64,000 nucleotides of DNA, taken from assembly GCA_043812655.1 (NCBI GenBank), contig JBDRLW010000008.1:3198-67197 (forward strand), read 5' to 3'. The notes beneath the pieces were generated by a model. That model was not told where the DNA came from, did not search any database, and saw nothing but the letters and a program-made list of their open reading frames with translations. Position numbers and translations under genes: made by a program. This document shows, in pieces, positions 5,967-63,726 of the stretch (positions are counted from its first letter, which is position 1; every line of letters begins with the position of its first letter). This stretch comes from a bacterium. Lineage in GTDB: Bacteria > Margulisbacteria > WOR-1 > O2-12-FULL-45-9 > XYB2-FULL-48-7.

Positions 5967-6683
5967 ATGAATAAATTAGATTTATCAGTTTCTATTCCGA
6001 CCTACAACGAAGCCAAGAACATTGAAACGATGATCATTCGTGTCCATGATGCTTTGCGCGCCCACGGGATAAATGAAGAGATCATTATTGTTGACGACAG
6101 CTCGCCCGATGGGACTGCAGCACTGGCCGAAAAAATGTCCAAAGATTATCCGGTTAGAGTTTATGTTAGGACCAAACGCGAAGGCCCCGGTCCCGCCATT
6201 ATGGATGGGATCAGACTGGCGCAAGCTCCGGTTTCCTGCACCATGGATGGAGACCTAAGCCACCCCCCCGAAGCGCTCCCTGAAATGTATAAGCTGATCA
6301 AATCAGGCCAAGCGCCCCTCGTTATCGGTAGCCGCCATGTTAAGGGAGGCGGCACTTCCAAGTGGATCTGGTATCGCAAATTTTTCTCCTGGGGAGCCCG
6401 GCAATTAGGTCGGCTGCTGACCCCGGTTCACGATTTAACCTCTGGATTTTTCATGTTCGACAAAAAGATCTTGCAAGGAGCAACGATCGATCCTATCGGT
6501 TGCAAAGTTGGACTTGAATTGATGGTCAAAGGGAAACACAAGGGCAAAGTCATCGAATATCCAATTATCTTCTCCGAACGGGCGGCCGGTGAAAGTAAAA
6601 TGGGTTGGCGTGAAACCAAACACTATCTTTACCATCTTGGCTCTCTCCTGCTTTGGAAAACGGCTAACATTTTCAAAAGATGA
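5967..6683 (+). CDS. GT2 polyprenyl-phosphate sugar transferase (ArnC/DPM1-like)
   Basis: GT-A fold, DxD (VDDSSPDG), about 238 aa. Classic partner that makes the lipid-linked donor for GT83 enzymes. Confidence 0.7.
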   Translation: MNKLDLSVSIPTYNEAKNIETMIIRVHDALRAHGINEEIIIVDDSSPDGTAALAEKMSKDYPVRVYVRTKREGPGPAIMDGIRLAQAPVSCTMDGDLSHPPEALPEMYKLIKSGQAPLVIGSRHVKGGGTSKWIWYRKFFSWGARQLGRLLTPVHDLTSGFFMFDKKILQGATIDPIGCKVGLELMVKGKHKGKVIEYPIIFSERAAGESKMGWRETKHYLYHLGSLLLWKTANIFKR

Positions 6684-8689
6684 TCGATCTTTCGGTTATT
6701 ATCGTCAATTATAATGGCGAGAAATATTTAAAGGACTGCCTCTCCTCGATCTATCAAAGTACCAAGAATATTAATTTCGAGATAATCTTTGTTGATAACC
6801 ACTCAGCCGATAATTCTGTCGACATTATTAAAACAAATTTCCCTAAAGTCATTATTATTGAAAACAAGAATAATCACGGGTTTTGCCGAGCTAATAACCA
6901 GGGTCTGAAGATATATCAAGGAAGATATGCCCTACTATTAAATAACGATACGATCGTAAAAGATGGCGCGCTAGACCAGCTGGTGCAGTTTATGGATAAC
7001 AATCCTGGCGCTGGGGCTTGCGGCCCCCTCCTCTCTAATCCCGATGGTTCACCACAACATCAAGGCGGAATATTTAATAAGAAGTTCTGGTTATCCTCTT
7101 CTCCAACTAAAGTCTCTTATGTCATCGGAGCGGCGCTAATGGTTAGGCGGGAAGTGGTTGATAAGGTCGGCGGGATGGACGAGAATTTCTTTTTTTCTAA
7201 TGATGACCTTGATTGGTGTTTGCGGATCAAAAAGGCCAGTCACGACGGGCAAGCCGGTTGGGATATTTATTTTGTTCCCCAGGCAAAAATAATGCATTAT
7301 GGCGGTTTTACGATCAATAAATTCAATCAAAAGTTATTTGTCGAAGGTTTCAGAGGCGGCCTCTATTTCTGCCGCAAACATTACGGCTTTTTAGCCTACC
7401 AATTGTATCGATCATTGCTGATCATAGGGATGATAATCGCTATTCCCCTTACTTTGATACTTTATCCATTTTTAAAACATAAAAAGAAATTAAATGCCTT
7501 TATTGAAATTTTGATGATTACCTTACAGCCCTCACCCCTGTCCCCTCTCCCAAAGGGAGAGGGGTGGAAAAACATTTTGTTAGTGAGCAACGGCCACGCG
7601 GAAGATCTAGCCGCTGCGGCAATTGGGGGAACACTGCAAACAGCAAGTCCAGATCTTTCTATTAGAGCCCTTCCTTTAGTCGGACTAGGGCAAGCCTATG
7701 ATAAAAAAGGAATAATAAATCTTGGCCTAAAGAAAATCTTACCCAGCGGTGGTTTTGCCAAAGAAGGGATATTCCATTTTTTAAATGATCTCCGCTCTGG
7801 CTTTTTTAGCCTCTTTCATCAACAGATCAAGATCCTGAGGCAAGAAGCTAAAAAAACTGATCTAGTCGTCGCTGTCGGAGACGTCTGGGTGGTGGCTTTA
7901 TGCGGCCTATTTGTTAAAAAACCTTTGATCTTCATCGATGGTCCAAAGTCAGTCAAGATCGAAGGTTATTATAAATTAGAACTTTGGCTGCTAAAGAAAT
8001 TCTGCCAAAAAGTTATCGTCCAAGACCCCGAAACAGCTGACTACTTACAGAAAAAAGGGATCCCCGCTTTTTATCTTGGTAGCTGGGTAATGGATTATGT
8101 CCCCGTCACTGGCGATAACCTTGGAATTGATCCGGGCAAAACAGTGATCGGGATTCTTCCGGGAACGCGTGAGGAAGCCTATCCTAACTTAAAATTGATC
8201 CTCGAAGTCTTTGAACTCTTGTCTCAATCTGACAAGAACCTGGTCGGAACGATTGCCTCTGTCTTAAATAAAGATAAAATTAAAATCCCTGGTTGGCAAT
8301 TAGAAGATAATAAACTAACTTCGAATTCTGGCGCTACGGCTTATCTTATCGAAGGCAAATTCGGCGATGTCTGTGTCCGCTCAAAACTTATCATCGGCTT
8401 GGCCGGGATCGCCAACGAACAAGCCGTCGCTTTTGGCAAACCAGTCGTCTGCTTCCCTGGTAGCGGAGCCCAAACGACTCTCCGCCGCTGGCAAGAAATC
8501 CACAAGATAACCAGCGATTCGATGCTGATTGTGCAAGGAAATACTGTAGAAAAAGCGGCCAAGATAATGAGATTATTGAAGGATGAAAAACGATTAGCAG
8601 TGATGGGAAAGATCGGAAAAGAGAGTAAACCAATGTGGGGCGGAGTTGAGAGGATCGCTAACCTGGTCAAAACTACTATCTCAAATTAA
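6680..8689 (+). CDS. Fused GT2 glycosyltransferase (N-terminal) plus GT19 LpxB-like domain (C-terminal); a repeat element lies at the junction
   Basis: N-terminal 250 aa are GT2-like (IIVNYNGEKYL, DNHSAD). C-terminal 380 aa are LpxB-like (LLVSNGHAEDLAAAAIGG, PGTREE). The R1 repeat at 7528-7568 encodes the linker QPSPLSPLPKGEGW. Confidence 0.55.
   Translation: MIDLSVIIVNYNGEKYLKDCLSSIYQSTKNINFEIIFVDNHSADNSVDIIKTNFPKVIIIENKNNHGFCRANNQGLKIYQGRYALLLNNDTIVKDGALDQLVQFMDNNPGAGACGPLLSNPDGSPQHQGGIFNKKFWLSSSPTKVSYVIGAALMVRREVVDKVGGMDENFFFSNDDLDWCLRIKKASHDGQAGWDIYFVPQAKIMHYGGFTINKFNQKLFVEGFRGGLYFCRKHYGFLAYQLYRSLLIIGMIIAIPLTLILYPFLKHKKKLNAFIEILMITLQPSPLSPLPKGEGWKNILLVSNGHAEDLAAAAIGGTLQTASPDLSIRALPLVGLGQAYDKKGIINLGLKKILPSGGFAKEGIFHFLNDLRSGFFSLFHQQIKILRQEAKKTDLVVAVGDVWVVALCGLFVKKPLIFIDGPKSVKIEGYYKLELWLLKKFCQKVIVQDPETADYLQKKGIPAFYLGSWVMDYVPVTGDNLGIDPGKTVIGILPGTREEAYPNLKLILEVFELLSQSDKNLVGTIASVLNKDKIKIPGWQLEDNKLTSNSGATAYLIEGKFGDVCVRSKLIIGLAGIANEQAVAFGKPVVCFPGSGAQTTLRRWQEIHKITSDSMLIVQGNTVEKAAKIMRLLKDEKRLAVMGKIGKESKPMWGGVERIANLVKTTISN
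7528..7568. repeat. R1 G-rich palindromic element copy (gccctcacccc...CCCTCTCCCaaaGGGAGAGGG) inside a CDS, in frame
   Basis: Seen directly. Shares box and hairpin motifs with eight other copies. Confidence 0.8.
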
Positions 8690-16998: not shown

Positions 16999-18537
16999 AT
17001 GAACATTTGGCTATTGTTAGCAATTACAACTTTGTTACGGCTCTGTCTGGCGTCGCTTTTCCCTATCACCGCCGATGAATCATACTATTGGCTCTGGTCA
17101 AAGCATTTAAGCCTTTCTTATGTCGATCATCCGCCAATGGTGGCGGTCGTTAATTGGCTTTTCACCCACGGGACAGAAAACCTGATCATGCTCCGTCTGG
17201 GGACGGCAATAATTTCATTTTTGGTTAGCCTGCTCATCTATTTCCTAGCGAAAGAAGTTTTCAATGAAAAAGTCGCTTTCTGGTCGGTGGTCCTGTTCCA
17301 AATCCTTCCCCACTTCGTCGTCATCTGGTTGACGCAATTTGTCGAACTCCCGCTCGCTTTATTCTGGACTTTATCATTATTGATTCTGGCAAAAATATTC
17401 AATTTTTCCCATCCATCTTCTCCGAACCCCCAAATCCGAACTCCTAACTTATTATGGCTCGCGCTCGGCCTCACCATCGGCCTGGGTTCCCTTAGCAAAT
17501 ACACCATGTTCCTCTTCTGGCCGTGTCTTGGATTATTCTTTATTCTCTCTCCCGAAAACCGTTTCTGGCTTAAGCGAAAAGAACTTTACCTATGCCTTCT
17601 CCTAAGCCTATGCTTTTTTTCTCCAGTATTGATTTGGAATAACAACCATGCCTGGGCATCGTTTCTCTTCCATGGCAGTAAAGCTAGTGGAGATGCGTGG
17701 GGAACAAATTTTCTCCCCTTTGTTGGCGATCAATTAGTACACTTTACGCCTTTCCTTATTTTTACTCTTTTTGCTGTCGCTAAATCCTTCTTTCCAACTA
17801 ACAAACTAATGGCTCGACAAGCCCTTCGGCAAGCTCAGGGCAACATCGAGCGGAGTCGAGATGCTCGCCATCCCAGCCATCCCGAGCTCCGTCGAGGGAC
17901 AAACCAACAAACCAACCAACTCCCCCTCCTCCTCGCCTCGTTCTCCTTCCCCATCCTCTGCCTTTTCCTTTTCCTAAGCCTTAAGGTCAAGGTCTGGGCC
18001 CACTGGCCGGAGATCGGTTATATTGCGGCCATTCCCTTAACAATTAATTACTTAATTGAAAAGAATAAATCATTAAATAAATTCATTACTTGGATTGCAG
18101 GCTTCACCGGTTTAGTTCTAATTATTCTATTTTGGGTCACGCCAGCCATTCTCTTACATCAGAAAGATTACCTGGCTAATTATCAATTAACCAATTCAAT
18201 CCCCAAAGAGTATAAGCTCTTTGCCAAAACCAATGTCTCTTCGTCTCTCCTTGAGTTTTATACCAAGCGACCGGTTTATATGGCCACCGGTTTTTTAAAA
18301 GAGAACCATCTCTGGGGCGAAAAACAGTATGAACTCTGGGGAATTCCCAATTTAGTTAAAGGGGAAACTGTCATATATTATGGTGATGATACCCCTTTCT
18401 TTCAAGAAAAAGCCAAAACTAATTTCAGAAGCATTACAGAATTACCGGTTAAATTGTATTTAATTGAGGATTATATTACTAATAATTATAAGATGTTTAA
18501 ACTAGAAGGTTATAAAAGATCCGCTTCTCACCCTTAG
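16999..18537 (+). CDS. GT83/PMT_2 family membrane glycosyltransferase (ArnT-like), paralog 5
   Basis: ADESYYWLWSKHLSLSYVDHPPM motif. Carries in-frame repeat inserts R3 (17417-17448) and R4 (17803-17915). Confidence 0.65.
   Translation: MNIWLLLAITTLLRLCLASLFPITADESYYWLWSKHLSLSYVDHPPMVAVVNWLFTHGTENLIMLRLGTAIISFLVSLLIYFLAKEVFNEKVAFWSVVLFQILPHFVVIWLTQFVELPLALFWTLSLLILAKIFNFSHPSSPNPQIRTPNLLWLALGLTIGLGSLSKYTMFLFWPCLGLFFILSPENRFWLKRKELYLCLLLSLCFFSPVLIWNNNHAWASFLFHGSKASGDAWGTNFLPFVGDQLVHFTPFLIFTLFAVAKSFFPTNKLMARQALRQAQGNIERSRDARHPSHPELRRGTNQQTNQLPLLLASFSFPILCLFLFLSLKVKVWAHWPEIGYIAAIPLTINYLIEKNKSLNKFITWIAGFTGLVLIILFWVTPAILLHQKDYLANYQLTNSIPKEYKLFAKTNVSSSLLEFYTKRPVYMATGFLKENHLWGEKQYELWGIPNLVKGETVIYYGDDTPFFQEKAKTNFRSITELPVKLYLIEDYITNNYKMFKLEGYKRSASHP
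17417..17448. repeat. R3 repeat in frame in GT83 paralog 5
   Basis: tcttctccgaacccccaaatccgaactcctaac encodes SSPNPQIRTPN. Confidence 0.7.
17803..17915. repeat. R4 repeat (long form, about 110 bp) in frame in GT83 paralog 5
   Basis: aacaaactaATGGCTCGACAAGC...TCGCCATCCCAGCCATCCCGAGCTCCGTCGAGGGAcaaaccaacaaacc with a 41-bp internal segment absent from the other copy. Confidence 0.75.
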
Positions 18538-18543
18538 CTTTTT

Positions 18544-18672
18544 GCCCTCATCCGCTGGCGCTAAAGACTCCCCCTTCTCCCATAGGGAGAAGGGAACACA
18601 GCAAGACTAGACGTGCAAATTACCCTCTCCCTTTGGGAGAGGGGGAAAGGTTAACGTTGGCTGGGTGAGGGC
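18544..18672. repeat. R1 composite MITE-like element between convergent genes
   Basis: gccctcatccgctggcgc box, two CCYTCTCCC-NNN-GGGAGARGG hairpins, terminal gggtgagggc. Confidence 0.8.
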
Positions 18673-18679
18673 TAAAGGC

Positions 18680-19588
18680 TTAAATATTCCCGGTATAAAC
18701 GTATTTCAATCCGGCTTCCAACCCAATCTCCTTGGCCTTAATAACGGTTTCCCTCGGAGTTGCCGGCCGGTCAAGCATTTTATAAGTGGGGTAAAAAGCC
18801 GAAACGTGCCAAGGAACATCATCGCCAAGATCGTTCTTAATAAAGCTGGCAATTTCCGTTAATTCTTCATTTGAATCATTCAAACCGGGAATAATCAAAG
18901 TCGTCAGCTCGATCCAGATCTTAAGATTCCTCATTAATTTAATCGTGTCTAAAACCGGCTGCAGTCGCCCACCACAATATTTTTTATAGTAATCGTCACT
19001 GAACGACTTCAGATCAATATTCGCCGCGTCAAGATATGGAGCGATCATTTTAGTCGGTTCCGGATTAGAATAGCCATTGGTCACAAAAATATTTTTCAGG
19101 CCCTTCGCGTTAGCAAGTTTAGCGCAATCATAGGCAAATTCAAAAAATATTGTCGGTTCGGTATAAGTATAGGAGATGCTCTGGCAATCGTTATCAATCG
19201 CTGCCTTAACAATTTCTTCCGGCGTTGTCTCTATGCCGCCAATTCCCCCCTCATCCCATCGTCCCCTCGTCTCATCGTCCTTTCGTCCTTTCGTTGCTTT
19301 CGAGATCCCAAAGTTTTGGCAGAAATCACAGCGGAAATTACAACCAACCGTTGCAATTGAATATGACCTTGTTCCCGGCAAAAAATGGTTGAGGGGCTTC
19401 TTCTCGATCGGATCAATAGCGGCTGAAATAACTTTACCGTAAACTAAGCTGTATAAAACACCCTTTTGGTTTTCCCTAACCCCACAAATCCCTCGTTTCC
19501 CATCAGCAATCAAACAATTATGCGGACAAAGTAAACACTGGACCCTGGACTCTGGACCCTGGACCCTATAAAAAAGTGCTTCCCTCAT
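18680..19588 (-). CDS. AmmeMemoRadiSam-system radical SAM enzyme (AmrS-like)
   Basis: VQCLLCPHNC N-terminal Cys cluster plus GCNFRCDFCQN radical SAM motif. Contains two in-frame inserts: R2 at the N-terminus and a 20-aa low-complexity insert. Confidence 0.7.
   Translation of the reverse strand: MREALFYRVQGPESRVQCLLCPHNCLIADGKRGICGVRENQKGVLYSLVYGKVISAAIDPIEKKPLNHFLPGTRSYSIATVGCNFRCDFCQNFGISKATKGRKDDETRGRWDEGGIGGIETTPEEIVKAAIDNDCQSISYTYTEPTIFFEFAYDCAKLANAKGLKNIFVTNGYSNPEPTKMIAPYLDAANIDLKSFSDDYYKKYCGGRLQPVLDTIKLMRNLKIWIELTTLIIPGLNDSNEELTEIASFIKNDLGDDVPWHVSAFYPTYKMLDRPATPRETVIKAKEIGLEAGLKYVYTGNI
19539..19568. repeat. R2 repeat (CTGGACCCTGGAnyCTGGACCCTGG) in frame in the AmrS N-terminus
   Basis: Encodes YRVQGPESRVQ, directly before the conserved CLLCPHNC. 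Confidence 0.7.
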
Positions 19589-20871
19589 TCACAGCCGCAG
19601 TTGCCGCCGCATTCGCACTCGCCGGCAAATTGGTCAAAAACTTTATCAAAAGCGATCGGTGATTGCTCCGCCGTCTTCATGTTTTTGAGAAGACCCAAGC
19701 CCGATTTAAGTTCTTCTTCACCAATGATATAAACATATTCCGCCTTCATTCGATCCGCACTTTTCATCTGTGCTTTGAGTGACTTGCCAAGATAATCAAG
19801 ATCGGCCGATAAACCTAAACTCCGCGCCTTCGTCACCAAATTAAACCCTAACTTCCTTGCTTCGTCTCCAAGGGTAGCAATATATAATTGTAATTTACCT
19901 TCATTTTCCATTTTTAATTTTTCATTTTTCATTATTTCCACGACTCGCTCAAGCCCCACCGCAAACCCGATCGCCGGAACTTTTTTCCCGCCCAGCTCTT
20001 CAACCAGGTTATCGTAGCGTCCCCCACCGCAGACAGCATTTTGCGCTCCCAAACTCTTGGAAACAATTTCAAAGGCCGTTTTGGTGTAATAATCTAAACC
20101 ACGGACCAAGCGCTTGTTTATCATGTGTTTTACTAACAAACTATCCAACAAACTAACTAACCGACTAAAATGCGTCTTACATTCTTCGCATAAATGATCG
20201 ACAGAAGCTGGAGCCTTTTCCAAATATTTCTGGCAATGCGCTTCTTTGCAGTCAAGGATCCTTAACGGATTTAACTCCACCCGCTCCTGACAATCGGCAC
20301 ACATGTCTTTAATATGTTCTTTAAAGTATTTTTGAATCGCGGCGCGATATCCCGGCTGGCAAACGGAACAGCCGACCGAATTAAGATTAACCGATAAGTC
20401 TTTCAGCCCGATCATTGAAAACAAATTAACAGCTAATTGGATCACTTCGGCATCAAGGAGCGGATCGGTCGAACCAAAAACCTCAACTCCCGCCTGGTGG
20501 AATTGCCGCTGGCGTCCGGCTTGCGGCCGTTCATAACGGAACATCGGTCCGATATAATAAAGCTTTGTTAAATTATCGGTTGAGATCAAATTGTTTTCTA
20601 AAGCCGCCCGAACAACCGGAGCTGTCTCTTCTGGACGCAGGGTTAAACTCCTCCCCTTACGGTCAGGGAAAGTGTACATCTCTTTTTTAACAATATCGGT
20701 AGTCGTGCCAATTGAGCGGGTAAATAGGTCGGTTGATTCAAATATAGGGGTGCGGATCTCCTGATAATTGTAAACGCCAAAGAGCGACCGGCAGCTCTCT
20801 TCCACAAACTGCCAAAGGGGCGTTTCGGCGGGAAGAATATCTTTTGTGCCACGGGGTGCTGTATATTTCAT
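19585..20871 (-). CDS. hisS: Histidine--tRNA ligase
   Basis: Class II aaRS motifs and MKYTAPRGTKDILP as in the HisS N-terminus. The long ORF is trimmed to the ATG at 20871 because the upstream 100 aa overlap thiF and are not HisS-like. Confidence 0.85.
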   Translation of the reverse strand: MKYTAPRGTKDILPAETPLWQFVEESCRSLFGVYNYQEIRTPIFESTDLFTRSIGTTTDIVKKEMYTFPDRKGRSLTLRPEETAPVVRAALENNLISTDNLTKLYYIGPMFRYERPQAGRQRQFHQAGVEVFGSTDPLLDAEVIQLAVNLFSMIGLKDLSVNLNSVGCSVCQPGYRAAIQKYFKEHIKDMCADCQERVELNPLRILDCKEAHCQKYLEKAPASVDHLCEECKTHFSRLVSLLDSLLVKHMINKRLVRGLDYYTKTAFEIVSKSLGAQNAVCGGGRYDNLVEELGGKKVPAIGFAVGLERVVEIMKNEKLKMENEGKLQLYIATLGDEARKLGFNLVTKARSLGLSADLDYLGKSLKAQMKSADRMKAEYVYIIGEEELKSGLGLLKNMKTAEQSPIAFDKVFDQFAGECECGGNCGCE

Positions 20872-24179: not shown

Positions 24180-24223
24180 CCACCCCCTCTCCCCCTGGGA
24201 GAGGGGGCCTGGGGGTGAGGGCT
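24180..24223. repeat. R1 element copy upstream of the TPP riboswitch
   Basis: ccctctccccctgggagaggggg hairpin plus a gggggtgagggc box. Confidence 0.75.
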
Positions 24224-26545: not shown

Positions 26546-27106
26546 ATGGCCAAACCAACTATTATTCTCGCTTCCGCCTCACCCAGAAGAAAAGAATTAT
26601 TAAAACGCTTAGTTGATAATTTCACGGTCATCCCCAGCAGTGTCGATGAAAAACTGATCACTGCCCCTACGCCGGAAGAGCTGGCAGAAAAGACGGCTCT
26701 TGCTAAAGCCAACGATGTCGCCAAAAATGAAAAAGATGCCATTGTGATAGGAGCCGACACAATTGTAATTCTTGGCGATATTATCCTGGGCAAGCCGAAA
26801 GATAATGACGAAGCCTATTTGATGCTTAAAAGTTTATCCGGCACTACCCATAAGGTTGTAACTGGTCTGGCAGTTATTGATACTAAAACCGGCAAAACAC
26901 AAAGCACTTATGTTGTCTCCCAAGTCAAGATGAAAAATGTTTCTGATCAAGCGATCAAAGATTATATTAGCACCGGCAGTCCCTTAGATAAAGCCGGTGG
27001 TTACGGCGTCCAAGAGATCGAAGACGCGTTTATGGCCAAGATCGATGGCGATCTTGATAATGTCGTTGGTTTACCAGTCAAAACTTTAAAGGAGATGCTG
27101 AAATGA
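26546..27106 (+). CDS. maf: Maf-like nucleoside triphosphate pyrophosphatase
   Basis: ILASASPRRKELL N-terminus and Maf-family length (186 aa). Confidence 0.8.
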   Translation: MAKPTIILASASPRRKELLKRLVDNFTVIPSSVDEKLITAPTPEELAEKTALAKANDVAKNEKDAIVIGADTIVILGDIILGKPKDNDEAYLMLKSLSGTTHKVVTGLAVIDTKTGKTQSTYVVSQVKMKNVSDQAIKDYISTGSPLDKAGGYGVQEIEDAFMAKIDGDLDNVVGLPVKTLKEMLK

Positions 27107-27663
27107 AAACCATTTGGAAACCGGGTACGATGATCTATCCTGTCCCTGCCGTTTTGGTCACTTGCGGTGATAGTCCCGAAAATTACAACATCATCACCAT
27201 TGCCTGGACCGGGACGATCTGTTCCGAACCGGCCATGAGTTATATTTCGATCCGCCCTTCCCGCCATTCTTATGAGATCATAAAACGAACTAAAGAATTT
27301 GTTATTAACCTAACAACGGAAAGATTAGCCAAGGCAACCGACTTTTGCGGCGTTAAATCTGGTCGGGATATAGATAAATTTAAACATTTAAAATTAACGC
27401 CGGAGCCAGCGACAAAAGTCAAAGCCCCGTTGATCGCCGAAAGTCCGCTTAACATTGAATGTCAGGTGACAGATCTTATCCCACTCGGCTCGCACGATAT
27501 GTTTATAGCCAAAGTCCTTTGTATTCATGCCGACAAAGATTATCTGGATAAACATGGCGCCTTCATGTTCAGCAAGACCAAACCGATCGCTTACGTCCAC
27601 GGCAAATATTATTCACTCGGAAAAGAGTTGGGCCATTTCGGGTATTCGGCCAGGAAAAAGTAA
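27103..27663 (+). CDS. Flavin reductase-like FMN-binding protein
   Basis: Flavin_Reduct-like domain (YPVPAVLVTCGD...AWTG). ATGA overlap with maf. Confidence 0.6.
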   Translation: MKTIWKPGTMIYPVPAVLVTCGDSPENYNIITIAWTGTICSEPAMSYISIRPSRHSYEIIKRTKEFVINLTTERLAKATDFCGVKSGRDIDKFKHLKLTPEPATKVKAPLIAESPLNIECQVTDLIPLGSHDMFIAKVLCIHADKDYLDKHGAFMFSKTKPIAYVHGKYYSLGKELGHFGYSARKK

Positions 27664-27762
27664 CCTCTCCCCGTCACTCACTTCGTTCGTGCCACCCCTC
27701 TCCATGAAATGGAGAGGGGAATGAATTCTCCGATGAAATCGGAGAAGAAAGGGGTGAGGGTG
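27664..27762. mobile_element. R1 MITE-like element (97 bp) with terminal inverted repeats
   Basis: ctccccgtcactcacttcgttcgtgccaCCCCTCTCCatgaaatGGAGAGGGGaatgaattctccgatgaaatcggagaagaaaGGGGTGAGGG. About 90% identical to the intragenic copy at 47989-48081. Confidence 0.75.
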
Positions 27763-27801
27763 TGCTATAATAAATAAAATTTATTGAAAGGAGATCTAAT
27801 C

Positions 27802-27960
27802 ATGGCAATCATCGAAGAATCAGAATATAAAGGCAAACCGGTTTTAGTTATCAAGCGGGACGAGAATGACAAATACCCGTTTTCGTTCGGGATCAGCAAA
27901 GCAAAATTGATGATCGAAAATCTGGAAGCGATCAAAAAGTTCGTCGAAAAGAACGGCTAA
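27802..27960 (+). CDS. Unannotated small protein (52 aa) flanked on both sides by R1 repeat elements
   Basis: ATG at 27802 preceded by AAGGAGA with 7-nt spacing; encodes MAIIEESEYKGKPVLVIKRDENDKYPFSFGISKAKLMIENLEAIKKFVEKNG. Falls below the 60-aa cutoff of the ORF track. Confidence 0.3.
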   Translation: MAIIEESEYKGKPVLVIKRDENDKYPFSFGISKAKLMIENLEAIKKFVEKNG

Positions 27961-27967
27961 GATTTAG

Positions 27968-28124
27968 ACCCTCACCCGCTAATGCTTAAGACTCCCCCCT
28001 CTCCCATAGGGAGAGGGTAACTCGCTTGTTTTATGTTTTATTTTTATACCCCCTCTACCTCCCTGCCTGCCGGCAGGCAGGTGGGAGAGGGGGTGCTATT
28101 GTTTGGCGTTGACGGGGGTGAGGG
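27968..28124. mobile_element. R1 composite element containing a nested R6 palindrome
   Basis: Runs accctcaccc...cccctctcccatagggagaggg...cctgcctgccggcaggcagg...gggggtgagggc, with TIR-like ends. Confidence 0.75.
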
Positions 28125-28135
28125 CTGTGAGGTTT

Positions 28136-29537
28136 TTACATCACCGGCAGGTTCGAGCTTCCCATTAAATATTCGTCTACCGCTCTGGCGGCTTTACGGC
28201 CTTCGGATATTGCCCAGACTATAAGTGATTGGCCTCGTCTCATATCACCAGCGGCAAATATTCCCTTAATGGAAGTCATATAATTTTGATTAGTTTTGAA
28301 GTTTCCCCGCTGATCAAGCTCGATCTTTAGATCAGCGATCGGTTCGGGATGTAAGAAACCTAAGGCCAGAAAAACCAGGTCGGCTTCTATCGTAAATTCA
28401 GAGTGAGGTATTTCTTTCAAATTCAGATCAACTTTTACACATTGCAATTTCTGGACCCTGGATCCTGGACCCTGGAATTCTTTTGTCGCAATCGACCACT
28501 GCCGTTCACAGCCTTCTTCATGACTGCTGGAAGTCTTAAGGATTAGCGGATACTTTGGCCATGGCTGGTCAACCGGCCGAGTTTCGCTTGGCTGCGGCAA
28601 GAGTTCTATTTGTACCACACAACTGGCCCCTTGGCGCTGAGCGGTTCCTACACAGTCTGAACCTGTATCACCCCCACCGATCACCACCACTTTTTTTCCT
28701 TTAGCATCAATTAATGAGTTCGTTGGTATTTTTTCTCCGGCAATTGTTTTATTGGCTTGGGTCAGATATTCCATCGCAAAGTAAACACCTTTGAGTTCCC
28801 GGCCGGGAGCTTTTAAGTCGCGGGGAATTCTGGATCCTCCGGCAAAGACAATTGCCTCAAATTCTTTTTGGAGCTTAGAAACAGGATAATCATCACCTAT
28901 CTTAATTTTAGTTTTAAAAGTGATCCCCTCTTCTTCCCAGATCTTGGTCCGACGATCGATGACTTTCTTTTCCAGCTTAAAATCAGGGATGCCGTAGCGC
29001 ATGATCCCGCCCAGTTTTTCGTCTTTTTCAAATACTGTAACACTATGGCCCGCTTGATTTAATTGCGCGGCGCAAGACAGTCCAGCTGGGCCAGAGCCAA
29101 CAACCGCTACTTTTTTACCGGTCGTAACTTTAGGCTGTCTGGCCTTGATCTGGCCGTGATCGAACATTTCTTCAACTATCCCCAATTCATTTTCCCTGAT
29201 CGTCACCGGGTCATCGTTGATCCCCAAGACACAAGAAAATTCGCACGGCGCCGGGCAAACTCGGCCGGTGATCTCTGGCAGATTATTGGTCGCGTCAAGG
29301 AGTTCCCAAGCTCTTTCCCACGATTTTACCGACGTCAGGTCATTCCACTCCGGGATATAATTACCAAGAGGACAGCCGCCATGGCAGAATGGGGTCCCGC
29401 AATCCATACAGCGGGTGGCCTGTTCCGCCGTCTCGTCTTCCGACCTAAGTTTAAAAACCCGGTCGAAATCTTTTACCCGCTCGCAAACCGGGCGGTAAGC
29501 GGTTTTGGTCCTTTTTATTTTTATGAACCCCTTTGGA

Positions 29538-29545
<8 letters not shown>
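28136..29545 (-). CDS. gltD: Glutamate synthase (NADPH) small subunit
   Basis: N-terminal Fe-S Cys motifs and GSGPAG FAD/NAD fold. Immediately downstream of gltB. Carries an in-frame R2 repeat insert. Confidence 0.85.
28450..28474. repeat. R2 repeat in frame in gltD
   Basis: ctggaccctggatcctggaccctgg encodes FQGPGSRVQ. Confidence 0.7.
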
Positions 29546-35466: not shown

Positions 35467-35552
35467 GAGAATAAAATTCTCGGTTCCTCAAAAAATGGAA
35501 CCGCGACTTTCAGCCTTGCCTGCCGGCAGGCAGGTCGCAGGTTCATACCAAA
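35467..35552. repeat. R5 repeat with an R6 palindrome nested in its second hairpin loop
   Basis: cggaacctgagaataaaattctcggttcc...ggaaccgcga[ctttcagccttgcctgccggcaggcagg]tcgcaggttc. Confidence 0.7.
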
Positions 35553-45476: not shown

Positions 45477-46205
45477 TTATAAATTAATATCCAACTGCGT
45501 GGTTAGCGTTGGTTTCGCCCCATTGTTATATTTGCCATAAGCACAGAGAACAGAGGTATTCGCTGAAAATGCGTATGAAAAACCGGCAAACAAGGCACCA
45601 AGTGACGAGTCGCCTCCAGCATAATCAACCGAAGCCCATATTTTATCGGTCAGCATTTTATCCCAAGTTAAAATAACACCCGCTCCGTCAGAGCCTAAAG
45701 TAGTTTTATTTCCCGCAAAGTAGCCAGCCGATATTCGGCCAAAGCTAAAGGTTTTTGCCCCAACACCATAAAGAATATTTTGGTCGGTCGCCCCTTTAAG
45801 CAAACCAAAGCCATACCCACCAACCGCTAAAGCCGGGAAAATATCGCTTTCAGCAATCCCATATTTAGCATTAAAAACCAAAGAACTTCCGGCCACTCCC
45901 TGGGGCAGAAAGGCATCAGCTCCAATTTCAACTCCCGAAATTACACCATAAGTTAAACCCAGGTCGGTCGGAAATTGCTGGCCGCCAGAACCCTTATCTT
46001 CAACTGAAAAATAATCATCAATCCCCAGATGCCATGTCCCCTTCGCCTGGATATCGGTCGACGGATTCCAGATCTGGGTCGACGGCGTCGCCAGCGCAGC
46101 CCCTCCCACTAACAAACTAACCAACAAACAAATGGCTCGACAAGCTCGCCATCCCAGCCATCCCGAGCTCCGTCGAGGGACTAACAGACTTTTCATGATT
46201 TTCAT
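45477..46205 (-). CDS. Putative outer-membrane porin co-transcribed with amt-glnK
   Basis: Signal peptide then alternating amphipathic beta-strands. Start trimmed to the ATG at 46205 (AAGGAGGG SD). An R4 repeat copy is translated within the signal-peptide region. Confidence 0.4.
   Translation of the reverse strand: MKIMKSLLVPRRSSGWLGWRACRAICLLVSLLVGGAALATPSTQIWNPSTDIQAKGTWHLGIDDYFSVEDKGSGGQQFPTDLGLTYGVISGVEIGADAFLPQGVAGSSLVFNAKYGIAESDIFPALAVGGYGFGLLKGATDQNILYGVGAKTFSFGRISAGYFAGNKTTLGSDGAGVILTWDKMLTDKIWASVDYAGGDSSLGALFAGFSYAFSANTSVLCAYGKYNNGAKPTLTTQLDINL
46108..46185. repeat. R4 repeat (short form) in the porin gene signal-peptide region, translated from the opposite strand
   Basis: ctaacaaactaaccaacaaacaaATGGCTCGACAAGCTCGCCATCCCAGCCATCCCGAGCTCCGTCGAGGGActaaca. 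Same plus-strand orientation as the 17.8-kb copy, but the host gene is on the minus strand. Confidence 0.75.
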
Positions 46206-46313: not shown

Positions 46314-47039
46314 TTATTGTAGGCCGAATATTTCGGGCAGGGTCCGTTTGTGTTCGCTAGCAGCTTGACGTTTTCTTATTAGTTCGATCTTATCTTTGGC
46401 AATCCCTTTGTCATTACCGGAAAGGAACTGGTCGAGTTCATCGTAAGTGATCCCCATCTCACTTTCATCTGTCTGCCCTGCCCAAAGACCGGCGCTCGGC
46501 GCTTTATCAATAATTTCTTTTGTGACGCCTAATTCTTGAGCCAAAGCCCTCACGTCTTTCTTTAAAAGATTCCCTAACGGCAAAAGGTCAACTCCCCCAT
46601 CGCCATATTTCGTAAAATAGCCCATTTCCAGTTCCGACCTGTTCCCCGTCCCGATCACTAAATAATTTAGTTGGCTGGCAAAATAATAAAGGGTCGTCAT
46701 CCGCAGTCTTGGTTTAATGTTGGCGATACTTAGGTCTTTCTGACCGCTATATGGCTTGCCTTCAAAGACACCAAACAATGAGTCAAATGAAGTAGACAGG
46801 TCAATCTCTTTGATTTTCAGATCAATTCGTTGCGCAAATTCTTTGGCATGATCAATATCGACCGCTAAACTGTGGCAAGGAAGAATTAACGCTAAAGTAT
46901 TTTGAGGAAAAACTTTTTTGCAAAGGAGCGCCACCACCGCAGAGTCAATTCCGCCGGAAAGTCCTAAAATACAACCTTTGGCTCCGGCTGCCTCAACCTT
47001 TTGTTTGATCCAATTAGAAATTTTTTCTGATCTATTCAT
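46314..47039 (-). CDS. nadE: NH3-dependent NAD+ synthetase
   Basis: GLSGGIDSAVV PP-loop, 241 aa. Confidence 0.85.
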   Translation of the reverse strand: MNRSEKISNWIKQKVEAAGAKGCILGLSGGIDSAVVALLCKKVFPQNTLALILPCHSLAVDIDHAKEFAQRIDLKIKEIDLSTSFDSLFGVFEGKPYSGQKDLSIANIKPRLRMTTLYYFASQLNYLVIGTGNRSELEMGYFTKYGDGGVDLLPLGNLLKKDVRALAQELGVTKEIIDKAPSAGLWAGQTDESEMGITYDELDQFLSGNDKGIAKDKIELIRKRQAASEHKRTLPEIFGLQ

Positions 47040-48451
47040 TGTAGTAAATTATGGATCGCCTTGGCCGCCCGTTTGCCGTCGCCCATGGCGGAGATAACGG
47101 TCGCGGCGCCGCGGACAATGTCGCCTCCGGCGTAAACCGCGGGGATCGAGGTCGCACCCTCCGGAGTAATGACCACGCCTCCCCACTTTTCGGTTTTGAG
47201 ATTTGGGGTACGCATCGGGACAAGCGGATTAGGAGAATTACCGATCGCCACGATCACTGTGCCAATTTGCAGTTTGAAGTTTGAGTTTGGAATCTCGACC
47301 GGCCTCCGTCGGCCGCTAGCATCGGGTTCGCCTAATTCCATCCGCAAACATTCCGCTTCAGCCACCCACCCATCACTATTAGGCAAATACTTGACCGGCA
47401 AAGTTAAATTCTTAAAAATTATCCCCTCTTCTTCCGCCCGTTTTACCTCTTCGATCCTGGCCGGCATCTCTGCCTGGGTCCGCCTATATATAATGTAAAC
47501 TTCTTTGGCCCCCAAGCGAAGAGATACCCTGGCCGCGTCCATCGCCACGTTGCCGCCGCCAACAACCGCGACTTTTTCACCGACTTTGACCGGCGTTAAA
47601 TATTCGGGGAACTTATAGGCCTTCATCATGTTGACCCGAAAAAGATATTCATTAGCGGAGTAAACCCCCTGGAGATTCTCGCCGGGAATATTCATGAATT
47701 TTGGCAAGCCGGCACCCGAGCCGATAAACACTGCTTGATAATTTTTTAACAATTCTTCGATCGTTAAGACATTACCGATCAGCATGTCAGTTTCAACTTT
47801 AACCCCAAGTGTTTTAACATATTCAACTTCAAGATTCACGATCTCTTTGGGCAAACGGAATTGCGGGATCCCGTATGTCAAAACGCCGCCCGTTACGTGA
47901 AGCGATTCAAAGATCGTCACTTGATACCCTAACCTAGCTAGATCGCCAGCGCACGTTAACCCCGCCGGCCCCGACCCGATTACTGCAACCCTCACCCCGT
48001 CACTCACTTCGTTCGTGCCACCCCTCTCCACTTTGTGGAGAGGGGAATGAATTCCGACGAAGTCGGAAGAAAGGGGTGAGGCCTTGTCCGCCACAAACCT
48101 CTCTAGGCTCCCGATCGCGATCGGCTCGCCCTTAACGCCCAACACACACTTTGCCTCGCATTGTTCTTCTTGGGGACAAACTCTACCGCAAACAGCGGGG
48201 AGAGCATTGGTCTCTTTAATTTTTTTCGCCGCTCCGGCAAAATCTCCTTGGGCCGCTAATTTTAGAAATCCGGGAATATCGACTTCGACTGGACAGCCGC
48301 TAACGCAAAGCGGTTTCTTGCATTGGATGCATCTTTTAGCTTCAGCGATCGCTTGTTCTACGGTAAAGCCTTGCGGCACTTCCTCAAAATCACGGATCCG
48401 CTCCGCTACCCCCCGCTCCGCCATATGTTGTCTTTTTGGTTTTTCAATCAT
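47036..48451 (-). CDS. GltD-like NADPH oxidoreductase beta subunit (NfnB/SudA-type)
   Basis: N-terminal Fe-S Cys motifs and two Rossmann GxGxxG folds. Paired with an NfnA/PyrK-like gene. Contains a 93-bp in-frame R1 insert. Confidence 0.7.
   Translation of the reverse strand: MIEKPKRQHMAERGVAERIRDFEEVPQGFTVEQAIAEAKRCIQCKKPLCVSGCPVEVDIPGFLKLAAQGDFAGAAKKIKETNALPAVCGRVCPQEEQCEAKCVLGVKGEPIAIGSLERFVADKASPLSSDFVGIHSPLHKVERGGTNEVSDGVRVAVIGSGPAGLTCAGDLARLGYQVTIFESLHVTGGVLTYGIPQFRLPKEIVNLEVEYVKTLGVKVETDMLIGNVLTIEELLKNYQAVFIGSGAGLPKFMNIPGENLQGVYSANEYLFRVNMMKAYKFPEYLTPVKVGEKVAVVGGGNVAMDAARVSLRLGAKEVYIIYRRTQAEMPARIEEVKRAEEEGIIFKNLTLPVKYLPNSDGWVAEAECLRMELGEPDASGRRRPVEIPNSNFKLQIGTVIVAIGNSPNPLVPMRTPNLKTEKWGGVVITPEGATSIPAVYAGGDIVRGAATVISAMGDGKRAAKAIHNLLQ
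47989..48081. mobile_element. R1 MITE-like element (93 bp) inserted in frame within the nfnB/gltD-like CDS
   Basis: CCTCACCCC...GGGGTGAGG terminal inverted repeats. Encodes an extra KASPLSSDFVGIHSPLHKVERGGTNEVSDGV just before the conserved VAVIGSGPAG. Confidence 0.8.
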
Positions 48452-48465
48452 TTTACTTTTTTATA

Positions 48466-48591
48466 CCCTCACCCAGTACCGCTGAACCTTTCCCCCTCTC
48501 CCAAAGGGAGAGGGTAATTCCCTTTTCCTCTCCGCGTTTTACCTTCTCCCTCTGGGAGAAGGGGGCGTCTTTTGCGCCAGCGGATGAGGGC
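48466..48591. repeat. R1 composite element in the nfnA-nfnB intergenic space
   Basis: accctcaccc box, ccctctcccaaagggagaggg and ccttctccctctgggagaaggggg hairpins, gcgccagcggatgagggc box (reverse complement of the box at 18544). Confidence 0.8.
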
Positions 48592-48593
48592 TA

Positions 48594-49427
48594 TTATAAT
48601 CCCAACAGCTTGCACACATGGTCCGAGGCTCTCTTTTCCACATCCTTAAACCCGCGCAGCCTGGCTGTTAACTCATTAAAATCAACTTCGTGCCCGTCAA
48701 ACTCCGGCCCGTCAACACAGGCAAATTTTATCTTGCCGCCGACGGTAACCCGGCATACCCCGCACATCCCGGTCGCGTCAAGCATTAAAGGGTTAAGTGA
48801 AACGACAGTCTTGATCCCAAAAGGTTTGGTCACATCACAACAAACTTTCATCATCGGCACCGGCCCAACGGCCACCACTTCGTCAATCTTTTTGCCGGAA
48901 GCTATCAAGTCTTTTAGCACATCAGAAACGAATCCCTTGCGCCCGTATGACCCATCGTCCGTTGTAACCAACAACTTCGCACTAATGACTGACAGCTCGT
49001 TTTCATAAATCAAGAGAGCTTTATTCCTCGCCCCGATAATTGTAATGACTTCAGTCCCGGCATTTTTCAACGCTTTGACTAAAGGATATATTTCAGCGAT
49101 CCCAACCCCGCCGCCGATCACCACCACGCAACCATTTTCAACTATATGCGAAGGGGTGCCGAGCGGACCTAAAAGATGTGCGAGCTCATCCCCAGCTTTT
49201 AAGGAATTCAACACCTGGGTCGTCCCCCCAACGATCTGGAAAATAATCGTAATGGTCCCAGCCGTTAAATCGCTGTCGGCGATCGTTAATGGGATCCGTT
49301 CGGCTGTCTCCGTTGGGACAACAATGACAAACTGCCCCGCCTTTGCCGACTTGGCAATATGAGGCGCTTCGATCGTTACCCGGGAAATTGTTTCGTTGAT
49401 CTTTTCCTTTTTTACTATTTTAGCCAT
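48594..49427 (-). CDS. NfnA/SudB/PyrK-like FAD/NAD(P)-binding [2Fe-2S] electron-transfer subunit
   Basis: Ferredoxin-NADP-reductase-like fold with C-terminal Cys residues (CGVCRV...C). Start trimmed to MAKIVKKE at 49427. Confidence 0.65.
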   Translation of the reverse strand: MAKIVKKEKINETISRVTIEAPHIAKSAKAGQFVIVVPTETAERIPLTIADSDLTAGTITIIFQIVGGTTQVLNSLKAGDELAHLLGPLGTPSHIVENGCVVVIGGGVGIAEIYPLVKALKNAGTEVITIIGARNKALLIYENELSVISAKLLVTTDDGSYGRKGFVSDVLKDLIASGKKIDEVVAVGPVPMMKVCCDVTKPFGIKTVVSLNPLMLDATGMCGVCRVTVGGKIKFACVDGPEFDGHEVDFNELTARLRGFKDVEKRASDHVCKLLGL

Positions 49428-49452
49428 TTGTTTAGATTTGATTATAACAGAA

Positions 49453-50364
49453 TCAATATCTTGGGACAAACATCCGCCTTTGTCTGGCGGCATCTTGGAA
49501 ATTGATCCTTTTATCTTCACCTTTACTCGATAATATTTCCGTTTGAAAAGAGATGGAAAACACATTATTGATCGCACCTGTAATATTGTCTCTAAAATAG
49601 GCGGCGTAATCAAAGTTATACCCTCCTAACTCAACTCCTACTCCATAAGTCCTCAGATTTTGATCAAACCCCGCCCTTAGCGCCAAGATCTTCATAGGCT
49701 GCCACTCGATCCCAGAATAACTAATTGGCGTTTGGTCTTTAATGGTCGGAAAACTGTCTTGGGCAAAATATAACTTTAAATCCTGTCCAGCCAACTCTTT
49801 TAGAGAATTTTTCTGGCCTAAAAGGTTGACCACTGCTCCATTTTTCCAAACAGCCGGGTGGCCAGTCATTTCGATCGATTTTTGAATGGCTGTACCAAAT
49901 GTTAACCACCGGTTTAATTTAAAAATTAGTCCTAAGTCCAGCTCTTTGCCAACCCCCCCCCCATGATCCTTGTAACTGATCCCTGCCATAAATCTCTTAA
50001 GTTCAACGCTATAAGCTAAAATCGCGGCCTTATTATCGTAGTTGCCCGACTGGCCCGAAGCAGTAAGGCCCGCACTAAAAATCCCGTAATCTGTCGGGTA
50101 AGCTGTCGCAATGGTCAGATAACGATAATCATTAGGCAGATCTCCATATAATAAACAGCTTTGCCATTTAGTGATCGCTGCTATTCCAGCCGGATTGGAA
50201 TAAAGCGCGCCAACATCGTCAACTTGTCCCACAAAAGCTTTCCCCAACCCCAAGGCTCTGGCACTTAAAGGAAAAGTAGCGGGATCGGGGACTTTAGTTT
50301 GCGCCAATGAAATTACAGAAGTAAAAATAAATAATGTTAAGACAACAAAAAAGCTTTTTTTCAT
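49453..50364 (-). CDS. Outer-membrane beta-barrel protein (FadL/PorV-like N-terminal motif)
   Basis: Signal peptide; GLGKAFVGQVDDVGALYSNPAGIA resembles the FadL/PorV family N-terminus. Confidence 0.4.
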   Translation of the reverse strand: MKKSFFVVLTLFIFTSVISLAQTKVPDPATFPLSARALGLGKAFVGQVDDVGALYSNPAGIAAITKWQSCLLYGDLPNDYRYLTIATAYPTDYGIFSAGLTASGQSGNYDNKAAILAYSVELKRFMAGISYKDHGGGVGKELDLGLIFKLNRWLTFGTAIQKSIEMTGHPAVWKNGAVVNLLGQKNSLKELAGQDLKLYFAQDSFPTIKDQTPISYSGIEWQPMKILALRAGFDQNLRTYGVGVELGGYNFDYAAYFRDNITGAINNVFSISFQTEILSSKGEDKRINFQDAARQRRMFVPRY

Positions 50365-63670: not shown

Positions 63671-63726
63671 GCCCTCACCCCGTCCGCCTACGGCGGACTG
63701 CCCCTCTCCCATAGGGAGAGGGGCGG
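63671..63726. repeat. R1 element copy
   Basis: gccctcaccccgtccgcctacggcggactgcccctctcccatagggagaggggcgg. Confidence 0.75.

Follow-up and report, generated by a model that had tools for sequence, protein, structure and literature searches.

Short structured DNA repeats and small nucleic-acid-binding proteins both have well-described representatives close to the locus treated here, an open reading frame (ORF) of 52 codons with a structured repeat on either side, in a 64-kb stretch of bacterial DNA (contig JBDRLW010000008.1; the whole stretch is referred to below as the window). The three-block, G/C-rich intrastrand triplex motif of Escherichia coli has been described as TM_ECO, with BoxC and PIT as its earlier names (Holder et al. 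2015, NAR; PMC4666352). As a single strand TM_ECO forms a triplex in vitro, the authors found no evidence of a stable triplex in vivo, and a link with local genome instability is known; in E. coli K-12 it is reported to be always intergenic, and the ITxF search definition allows loops of 1-6 nt between blocks (PMC4666352). Rickettsia palindromic elements (RPEs) are found in frame in housekeeping genes, where they add a peptide to a surface or linker region that tolerates it (review PMC10969869). Among proteins, PC4-like domains occur as intermolecular dimers (type II) or intramolecular dimers (type I), and Pur-alpha repeats I-II are the intramolecular-dimer form of the fold (PMC7549692). PC4 needs F77, a residue that stacks on DNA bases and is kept in Sub1 orthologues, for binding single-stranded DNA (ssDNA), and the DNA backbone is touched by the basic side chains R70, R86, R100 and K101 (PMC4350104).

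The ORF, at 27802-27960 on the plus strand, is a genuine protein-coding gene at a conserved chromosomal position. It lies between an upstream repeat of 97 nt (R1a, 27664-27760) and a downstream repeat of 157 nt (R1b, 27968-28124), both of which are lineage-specific, non-coding, structured palindromes that relatives lack at this locus. They adjoin the gene and are neither its vehicle nor its regulator in any demonstrated sense. With good probability, the locus represents a conserved, independent gene beside which lineage-specific triplex-motif palindromes were added later, and not the cargo of a transposon.

Conservation and setting of the small gene

A word-indexed search returned 158 close homologs of 50-57 aa with 65-85% identity from Margulisbacteria, WOR-1/Saganbacteria and Omnitrophota. 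The profile search with the small-protein family, which ran over 1.84 billion cluster representatives, gave 1321 representatives of 50%-identity clusters at E <= 1e-3 (313 at E <= 1e-10). When one genome per species was scanned, relatives were found to be encoded in 346 species-representative GTDB genomes, a set that also reaches Elusimicrobia, Planctomycetota/Brocadiia, 'Deltaproteobacteria' and WS2. As a whole, the family spans Omnitrophota, Margulisiibacteriota, Saganbacteria/WOR-1, Elusimicrobia and Planctomycetota, among other groups.

The pattern of divergence was that of a coding sequence. Differences at the first, second and third codon positions amounted to 0.21, 0.11 and 0.58 in 88 aligned genes, the third position dominating, and in the 12 comparisons where the values were computable, nonsynonymous divergence (dN) was 0.12-0.25 and synonymous divergence (dS) was above 1.3 (saturated). 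The aligned homologs had 0 in-frame stops, compared with 3.2-3.5 in the other frames. An ATG start was present in 71 of 79 homolog loci and a motif resembling the Shine-Dalgarno (SD) sequence, at -18..-4, in 77 of them. The first-pass annotation had let the ORF stand or fall with conservation outside this genome and a coding signal; both were found, and the ORF is therefore a gene.

Reading of the sequence also confirmed the layout that had been reported for the ORF: the SD sequence AAGGAGA (27788-27794, plus strand), a 7-nt spacer (27795-27801), the ATG at 27802 and a charged 52-aa product. The frame ends with TAA at 27958-27960, and the product, MAIIEESEYKGKPVLVIKRDENDKYPFSFGISKAKLMIENLEAIKKFVEKNG, has 10 basic (K/R) and 9 acidic (D/E) residues. 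The ORF had been called unannotated, which did not hold: the exact NCBI match of the protein is 'MAG: hypothetical protein ABIH50_01545 [bacterium]' on a 122,383-bp contig, so the ORF was annotated at source, though unnamed.

Between the upstream repeat and the start codon lies a 41-nt A+T-rich spacer of non-repeat sequence, in which an extended -10-like box, TGCTATAAT (27763-27771, plus strand), was read by eye. This is likely the promoter of the small gene; the two-hexamer consensus scan did not report the box because it has no -35. At the small gene the same scan gave just one poor promoter match, overlapping the start codon, and found no intrinsic terminator. The gene is probably transcribed on its own. 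The SD and start region (27761-27830) was unstructured, with z = +1.16 on folding against shuffled sequence.

The co-directional upstream neighbour is a flavin-reductase-like gene (27103-27663, plus strand), whose stop codon (27661-27663) abuts the upstream repeat. The convergent downstream neighbour, gltD (glutamate synthase small subunit; 28136-29545, minus strand), is the synteny anchor with relatives. In WOR-1, the homolog is located downstream of an AXE1/DLH hydrolase gene and tail-to-tail with gltD-gltB, with a 0-nt gap to gltD and no repeats. Searches by tblastn with the window neighbours showed the gltD-gltB adjacency also in a Margulisiibacteriota metagenome-assembled genome (MAG) and one unclassified MAG, and hydrolase and radical-SAM genes upstream of the small gene in a Saganbacteria MAG. 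In two relatives (L013 944-1420; L017 3174-3655), a lipoprotein-like gene with an MKK...LAGC signal separates the small gene from gltD, where the window holds the R1b repeat only. Other arrangements were UvrD-like helicase, small gene, rpsO and pnp at ~16-18 Omnitrophota/Planctomycetota loci, and flippase-like gene, small gene and membrane protein at ~16 loci (neighbours named by sequence reading in both cases). No universal gene partner was found among the loci compared, and contexts varied by phylum.

The encoded protein and its predicted fold

Scans of the 52-aa protein and diverse relatives against Pfam, NCBIfam, PHROGs and PADLOC gave no family match, and nothing was found by sequence and profile searches of the PDB with the 52-aa protein. 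An AlphaFold2 model built on a 108-sequence alignment reached a predicted local distance difference test (pLDDT) score of 95.6 and consists of strands at residues 3-9, 12-18 and 27-30 followed by a kinked helix (31-39 and 41-51). The first-ranking Foldseek match in the PDB was the C-terminal domain of human PC4 (1pcf_A; prob 0.99, TMq 0.65, E 0.07), with further matches to PC4, MoSub1 and phage T5 PC4-like entries (best structural matches 1pcf, 6ycs, 4usg and 4bhm); PC4/Sub1 matches overall had TMq 0.64-0.68, prob 0.92-0.99 and E 0.07-0.5. COMM-domain and other three-strand-plus-helix modules scored lower than PC4, and the BFVD viral fold search gave weak, unnamed matches only. The model thus shares with PC4-like domains an antiparallel sheet followed by a helix, superposable on the PC4 C-terminal domain, with three strands instead of four or five.

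In the hhalign alignment with PC4 the first hairpins were paired (sEYKGKPvLvIK with rDFKGKvLIDIR), which places Y9-K10-G11-K12, an aromatic-Lys-Gly-Lys hairpin, on PC4 F77-K78-G79-K80. The family also has natural tandem-duplicated members, and in one relative four module repeats stand behind a DnaJ J-domain, the sole exception among otherwise uninformative fusion partners. The model of a tandem member (pLDDT 84.5) shows two strand-strand-strand-helix-helix repeats, and its top five PDB matches were Pur-alpha repeats I-II, at low TM scores of 0.31-0.37.

From the model, a function is proposed tentatively. The 52-aa protein may be a minimal PC4-like module of three strands and a kinked helix, which would dimerise through that helix like type-II PC4-like domains and bind single-stranded nucleic acid on its sheet, Y9-K10-G11-K12 replacing PC4 F77-K78-G79-K80. 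Membership of the PC4/Sub1 family (PF02229) was considered and dropped, the profile match not being significant, and the fold is called PC4-like instead.

Several observations weigh against this proposal. The query did not match PF02229, and of 71 diverse members a single one reached E 0.061, below threshold. With hhalign, human PC4 alone and a 20-sequence, vertebrate-biased PC4 profile gave ~10% probability over the first hairpin only, and homology to PC4 is therefore not claimed. No PDB sequence match was obtained for the protein, and Foldseek gave weak E-values (0.07), which a length of 52 residues would lead one to expect. Among the lower-scoring fold matches were COMM-domain proteins, likewise built of three strands and a helix, the model has three strands against the five described for PC4 (PMC4350104), and the TM scores of the tandem member with Pur-alpha are low. 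No one gene neighbour is conserved across phyla. The protein is near-neutral (+10 / -9) and several of its invariant residues are acidic (E8, D23); charge and invariant acidic residues are the main reasons for caution in calling it an ssDNA or single-stranded RNA binder.

Some of these points would fit a different function, that of a small dimerisation or adaptor module (COMM-like, three strands and a helix) or a binder of some conserved partner protein rather than of nucleic acid. COMMD and phage 'COMM domain' models appeared in the fold matches with prob 0.84-0.93, the net charge is about zero with acidic residues invariant, the relative with a DnaJ J-domain carries four module repeats, and PC4 homology is not significant by sequence. 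However, PC4/Sub1 structures were the best and most consistent fold matches, with Pur-alpha for the tandem form, the aromatic-K-G-K hairpin falls at the DNA-stacking position of PC4, and some loci adjoin the helicase gene and rpsO-pnp. An adaptor role is possible, if on the unlikely side.

The flanking repeats and their relation to the gene

R1a starts directly after the flavin-reductase stop codon. It has a terminal block CCTCTCCCC (27664-27672), followed by a conserved segment GTCACTCACTTCGTTCGTGCC, and ends with a terminal mirror block GGGGTGAGGG (27751-27760). Folding gave hairpin 1 (CCCCTCTCCAT/ATGGAGAGGGG, 27695-27719) and hairpin 2 (TCTCCGAT-GAA-ATCGGAGA, 27727-27745), with a minimum free energy of -47.8 kcal/mol (z = -5.4 against shuffled sequence, 27664-27760). 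R1b is a palindromic pair of triplex-motif units that fills the convergent gap to the gltD stop at 28136. It begins with the block ACCCTCACCC (27968-27977), continues with hairpin A (CCCTCTCCC-ATA-GGGAGAGGG, 27997-28017), an A+T-rich spacer and hairpin B (28048-28094), and ends with the block GGGGGTGAGGG (28114-28124); the segment 27975-28124 folds at -72.5 kcal/mol (z = -5.1 against shuffled sequence). Hairpin B contains a nested palindrome, CCTGCCTGCC/GGCAGGCAGG at 28062-28081, and an element-in-element insertion is suggested there. The perfect palindrome CCTGCCTGCCGGCAGGCAGG occurs twice in the window, at 28062-28081 and at ~35517-35536.

Both flanks are G+C-rich and non-coding, without an ORF of their own. 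The first-pass annotation had assigned both to one repeat type, R1, with the upstream element ending at 27762. Structured repeats are indeed present on both sides; the upstream one ends at 27760, and the two are different subtypes, whose only common parts are a short block at the ends (CCTCACCC / GGGTGAGG) and a hairpin, CCCTCTCC/GGAGAGGG. R1a comprises a hairpin with a third-strand block at either side and, in addition, a second hairpin, and is 91% identical over 65 nt to a window copy at 47990-48054. Relatives of R1b in the window are at 18545 and 48466 (family D3: 18539, 27963, 48460). No match to Rfam was obtained anywhere in the window at gathering thresholds.

The window contains 11 core hairpins (CCCTCTCC-loop-GGAGAGGG) in eight elements, at 7529-7565, 18545-18671, 24183-24222, 27664-27760, 27968-28124, 47989-48082, 48466-48590 and 63672-63724. 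The 8-mers GGAGAGGG and GGTGAGGG occur 20 and 11 times, against 1.95 and 1.4 expected. All 11 hairpins have an outer mirror third-strand block GGGTGAGGG (on the other strand CCCTCACCC) within ~35 nt, and apart from one A-to-T change this block mirrors the purine arm. The three consecutive triplex blocks, namely a pyrimidine block, the purine block complementary to it and a G-rich mirror-repeat third block (CCCTCTCCC / GGGAGAGGG / GGGTGAGGG), are present in both flanks and in all eight elements. Canonical short-loop copies are found only at 7529-7563 and 24185-24221, the latter reading CCCTCTCCCCCTGGGAGAGGGGGCCTGGGGGTGAGGG where E. coli TM_ECO no. 1 reads CCCTCTCCCTGTGGGAGAGGGCCGGGGTGAGGGC (PMC4666352 Table 1). 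In the flanks the third block lies ~20-32 nt from the hairpin (27719 to 27751; 28094 to 28114; 27977 to 27997). Judged by these letters, the published triplex motif BoxC/PIT/TM_ECO forms the core of the repeats and takes on long-loop palindromic forms here. The G-rich blocks were also considered as a G-quadruplex, but the triplex motif was preferred because it explains the mirror symmetry.

A 31-mer from R1a retrieved eight more copies from metagenome contigs, all with the same architecture, an identical 40-nt core and defined ends (CCTCACCCC...GGGGTGAGG). The copies were compared by individual folding, since MAFFT misaligned hairpin 2; the stem sequence of that hairpin differs in almost every copy, with pairing always kept, and one variant is a single near-perfect 83-nt hairpin. 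The elements are often flush against stop and start codons. In two metagenome copies (L090 and L093) the right end AGAAAGGGGTGAGG lies 1-2 nt before the next ATG, read as the starts of Fpg-like and TatD-like genes, and at these two the right end of R1a may supply a ribosome-binding purine tract.

The repeats had also been likened to MITEs (miniature transposable elements with inverted repeats). That description is borne out by the 9-10-nt terminal inverted blocks (CCTCACCCC...GGGGTGAGG), the structure, the size of 83-157 nt and the copy number (eight elements in 64 kb plus the eight further R1a copies in metagenome contigs), and departs from the data in that no target-site duplication was visible at 10 R1a copies. 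No transposase was present among the 10 window ORFs scanned against Pfam, and no search for an autonomous insertion sequence (IS) or RAYT was made beyond the window.

Stable structures on both sides raise the question of control. The ORF could encode a regulatory peptide whose expression the hairpins around it shape, as had been suggested, or a leader peptide, or its expression could be materially controlled by the hairpins through attenuation, occlusion of the ribosome-binding site or RNase processing. MITE-type repeats can supply promoters, be cut by RNase III and alter mRNA stability (review PMC10969869), and hairpin A, which lies 36 nt past the stop codon and is followed ~10 nt after its stem by a T-rich stretch, could act in termination or in stabilising the mRNA. 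The product, however, is predicted to be a well-folded protein (pLDDT 95.6) and keeps 65-85% identity over several phyla, neither of which would be expected of a leader peptide, and homologs elsewhere sit in loci without such repeats. The SD and start are unstructured and the putative promoter lies between R1a and the start codon, no canonical intrinsic terminator was found by the consensus scan, and an older study in E. coli that Holder et al. cite saw no promoter or terminator activity of PIT/TM motifs (PMC4666352). A peptide regulator and control by the hairpins are both improbable.

The cargo idea, in which the two R1 elements form a composite-transposon-like unit that mobilises the small gene, fares considerably worse. 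A perfect 10-nt inverted pair does bracket the gene, GGGTGAGGGT (27752-27761) and ACCCTCACCC (27968-27977), and the multiple copies of R1a across contigs, with an identical 40-nt core, point to recent spread. Against mobilisation, the flanks belong to different subtypes of 97 and 157 nt with neither transposase nor coding capacity, target-site duplications were not seen beside R1a copies, and the gltD-gltB and hydrolase/radical-SAM synteny is kept in relatives that have no repeats. Among 87 homolog loci, repeat 8-mers were present on both sides in none and anywhere within 300 nt in 4; the core hairpin was present in 0 of 80 species-representative loci (~480 kb). The window has a single copy of the gene and the eight repeat-bearing metagenome contigs have none, and no further copy flanked by R1 was found at these loci and contigs. 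A composite transposon has the same transposase-encoding IS on both sides and occurs as a unit at non-homologous sites, and neither was seen here. The double flank is also expected by chance (P ~0.36): 5 of the 49 intergenic gaps in the window are occupied, and random placement fills two adjacent gaps in 36% of cases. Statistically the sandwich is unremarkable, and mobilisation of the gene by its flanks is very hard to maintain.

Functional coupling, in which non-B DNA formed by R1 (a triplex or hairpin) would be what the PC4-like protein acts on and the sandwich would be meaningful, draws on the binding of PC4-like proteins to unwound or single-stranded DNA (PMC7549692, PMC4350104), yet it is hardly credible given a family in 346 species whose 80 sampled loci (~480 kb) lack the core hairpin, window repeats that flank many unrelated genes, and no co-occurrence signal.

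An independent gene with later repeats would imply the following order of events. The small gene would already have been in place before repeats colonised both spacers; R1a would have landed between the flavin-reductase stop codon and the putative TGCTATAAT promoter of the small gene, and R1b in the convergent gap before gltD, the position of the lipoprotein gene in two relatives. It counts against this reconstruction that the order is drawn from only a few related genomes. The sandwich itself is then nothing special: a housekeeping-type small gene with common genomic repeats inserted on both sides.

Two further repeat types were observed in the window. A second, unrelated family is represented at 17796-17904 and 46108-46185 by a core ATGGCTCGACAAGCTCGCCATCCCAGCCATCCCGAGCTCCGTCGAGGGAC that is 93-94% identical; short repeats of the ACTAACAAACTAAC type flank this core, and similar ones are found at 20132, 59626 and 61007. 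A short repeat, CTGGACCCTGGA(T/C)(C/T)CTGGACCCTGGA, is common to two coding regions, 28451-28476 (gltD, where QGPGSRVQ is encoded) and 19538-19563.

Repeat copies within genes and comparison with known systems

A more surprising by-product than the sandwich was the presence of repeat copies in frame within genes, with the same nfnB linker used in several lineages. The copy at 47989-48082, whose 91% identity to R1a is given above, lies in frame within nfnB (47036-48451, minus strand), the product of which matches Thermotoga maritima NfnB (4ylf_B) with 530 bits. The peptide encoded there, ASPLSSDFVGIHSPLHKVERGGTNEVSDGVR, is part of the linker that immediately precedes the GSGPAG motif. In a set of 120 orthologs the NfnB linker is hypervariable in length and content, and many orthologs have repeat-derived linker peptides (e.g., PSPSxMERGMN, PLSQRERG, PPLPEGEG). 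A Margulisbacteria ortholog carries a complete 105-nt R1a-type element in frame and in the opposite orientation (L096 ~1850-1960), and another ortholog carries the canonical 39-nt triplex motif in frame (L097 ~840-880). In WOR-1 gltB (glutamate synthase large subunit), the core hairpin CCCCCTCTCCCTCTGGGAGAGGGGG is in frame and translated as PPPTPSPRGRGE (L001 9677-9697). Next to nfnB in the window, the 125-nt R1b-type element at 48466-48590 fills the spacer between nfnA (48594-49613) and nfnB; the two genes presumably form one operon, and the element would therefore be part of the mRNA.

At 6680-8689, a single open frame of 669 codons contains both a GT2 glycosyltransferase (6680-7528) and a complete TIGR03492 protein (lipid-A-disaccharide-synthase-related; 7577-8689, 230.6 bits). 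The frame crosses the canonical triplex copy at 7529-7565, translated as QPSPLSPLPKGEGW, and is either a repeat-mediated gene fusion or the result of a lost stop codon.

By published account the triplex motif is strictly intergenic in E. coli, whereas here larger palindromes are in frame within genes. Their recurrence at one NfnB linker, in different lineages, different forms and both orientations, bears on how the motif spreads and on what proteins tolerate. On the protein side, a 50-57-aa family with 65-85% identity across phyla, without an entry in Pfam, NCBIfam, PHROGs or PADLOC and with a confident PC4-like predicted fold, is a concrete candidate for a new class of small proteins that bind single-stranded nucleic acid in little-studied bacterial phyla. 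A wider account would combine both sides: the 52-aa protein would found an undescribed family, widespread in 346 species and in single and tandem forms, of minimal PC4-like proteins with three strands that bind single-stranded nucleic acid, and R1 would be a set of mobile triplex-based palindromes that in Saganbacteria/Margulisiibacteriota colonise intergenic DNA and, in frame and in either orientation, the NfnB linker and other enzymes, RPE-like in a new phylum. In this full form the account is speculative and rather doubtful.

The protein resembles PC4/Sub1 (PF02229) and the PC4-like proteins of bacteria YdbC (DUF2128, PF09901) and SP_0782 in its small size and in an antiparallel sheet followed by a helix, PC4/Sub1 being the best structural match, and the aromatic-K-G-K beta-hairpin of the family aligns with F77-K78-G79-K80 of PC4. 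The single modules and tandem duplications of the family parallel the type II and type I forms of PC4-like domains (PMC7549692). It differs from PC4/Sub1 in its length of 52 aa, in three predicted strands instead of five, in its near-neutral charge and in the lack of a significant match to PF02229; PF09901 was not among the Pfam matches either.

Like REP, BIME and REPIN sequences and MITEs (Correia/NEMIS, ERIC, RUP), the window repeats are short, non-coding, structured, multi-copy palindromes with terminal inverted blocks, which fill intergenic gaps, are often tight against stop or start codons and can nest. They differ from these in having no visible target-site duplication and in their core, where a triplex-type mirror repeat takes the place of a simple REP hairpin.

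With TM_ECO/BoxC/PIT they share the same three blocks (CCCTCTCCC, GGGAGAGGG and the mirror block GGGTGAGGG), multiple copies on both strands and frequent inverted pairs, and two copies (7529-7563 and 24185-24221) have nearly the same form as entries of the E. coli Table 1. In contrast to TM_ECO, the second loops of the elements flanking the ORF are ~20-32 nt long, some with an extra hairpin, against the 1-6 nt of ITxF; these elements are units of 97-157 nt with defined ends; some copies are in frame within genes, whereas TM_ECO in E. coli K-12 is reported to be intergenic throughout; and the host is an uncultivated Saganbacteria/Margulisiibacteriota-like lineage.

The comparison with RPEs covers the other copies of the family and not the two that flank the ORF. 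The in-frame copies belong to another sequence family and host phylum and are shorter (39-105 nt), and they resemble RPEs in where they are found, namely the linker of nfnB, gltB of WOR-1 and a two-gene junction.

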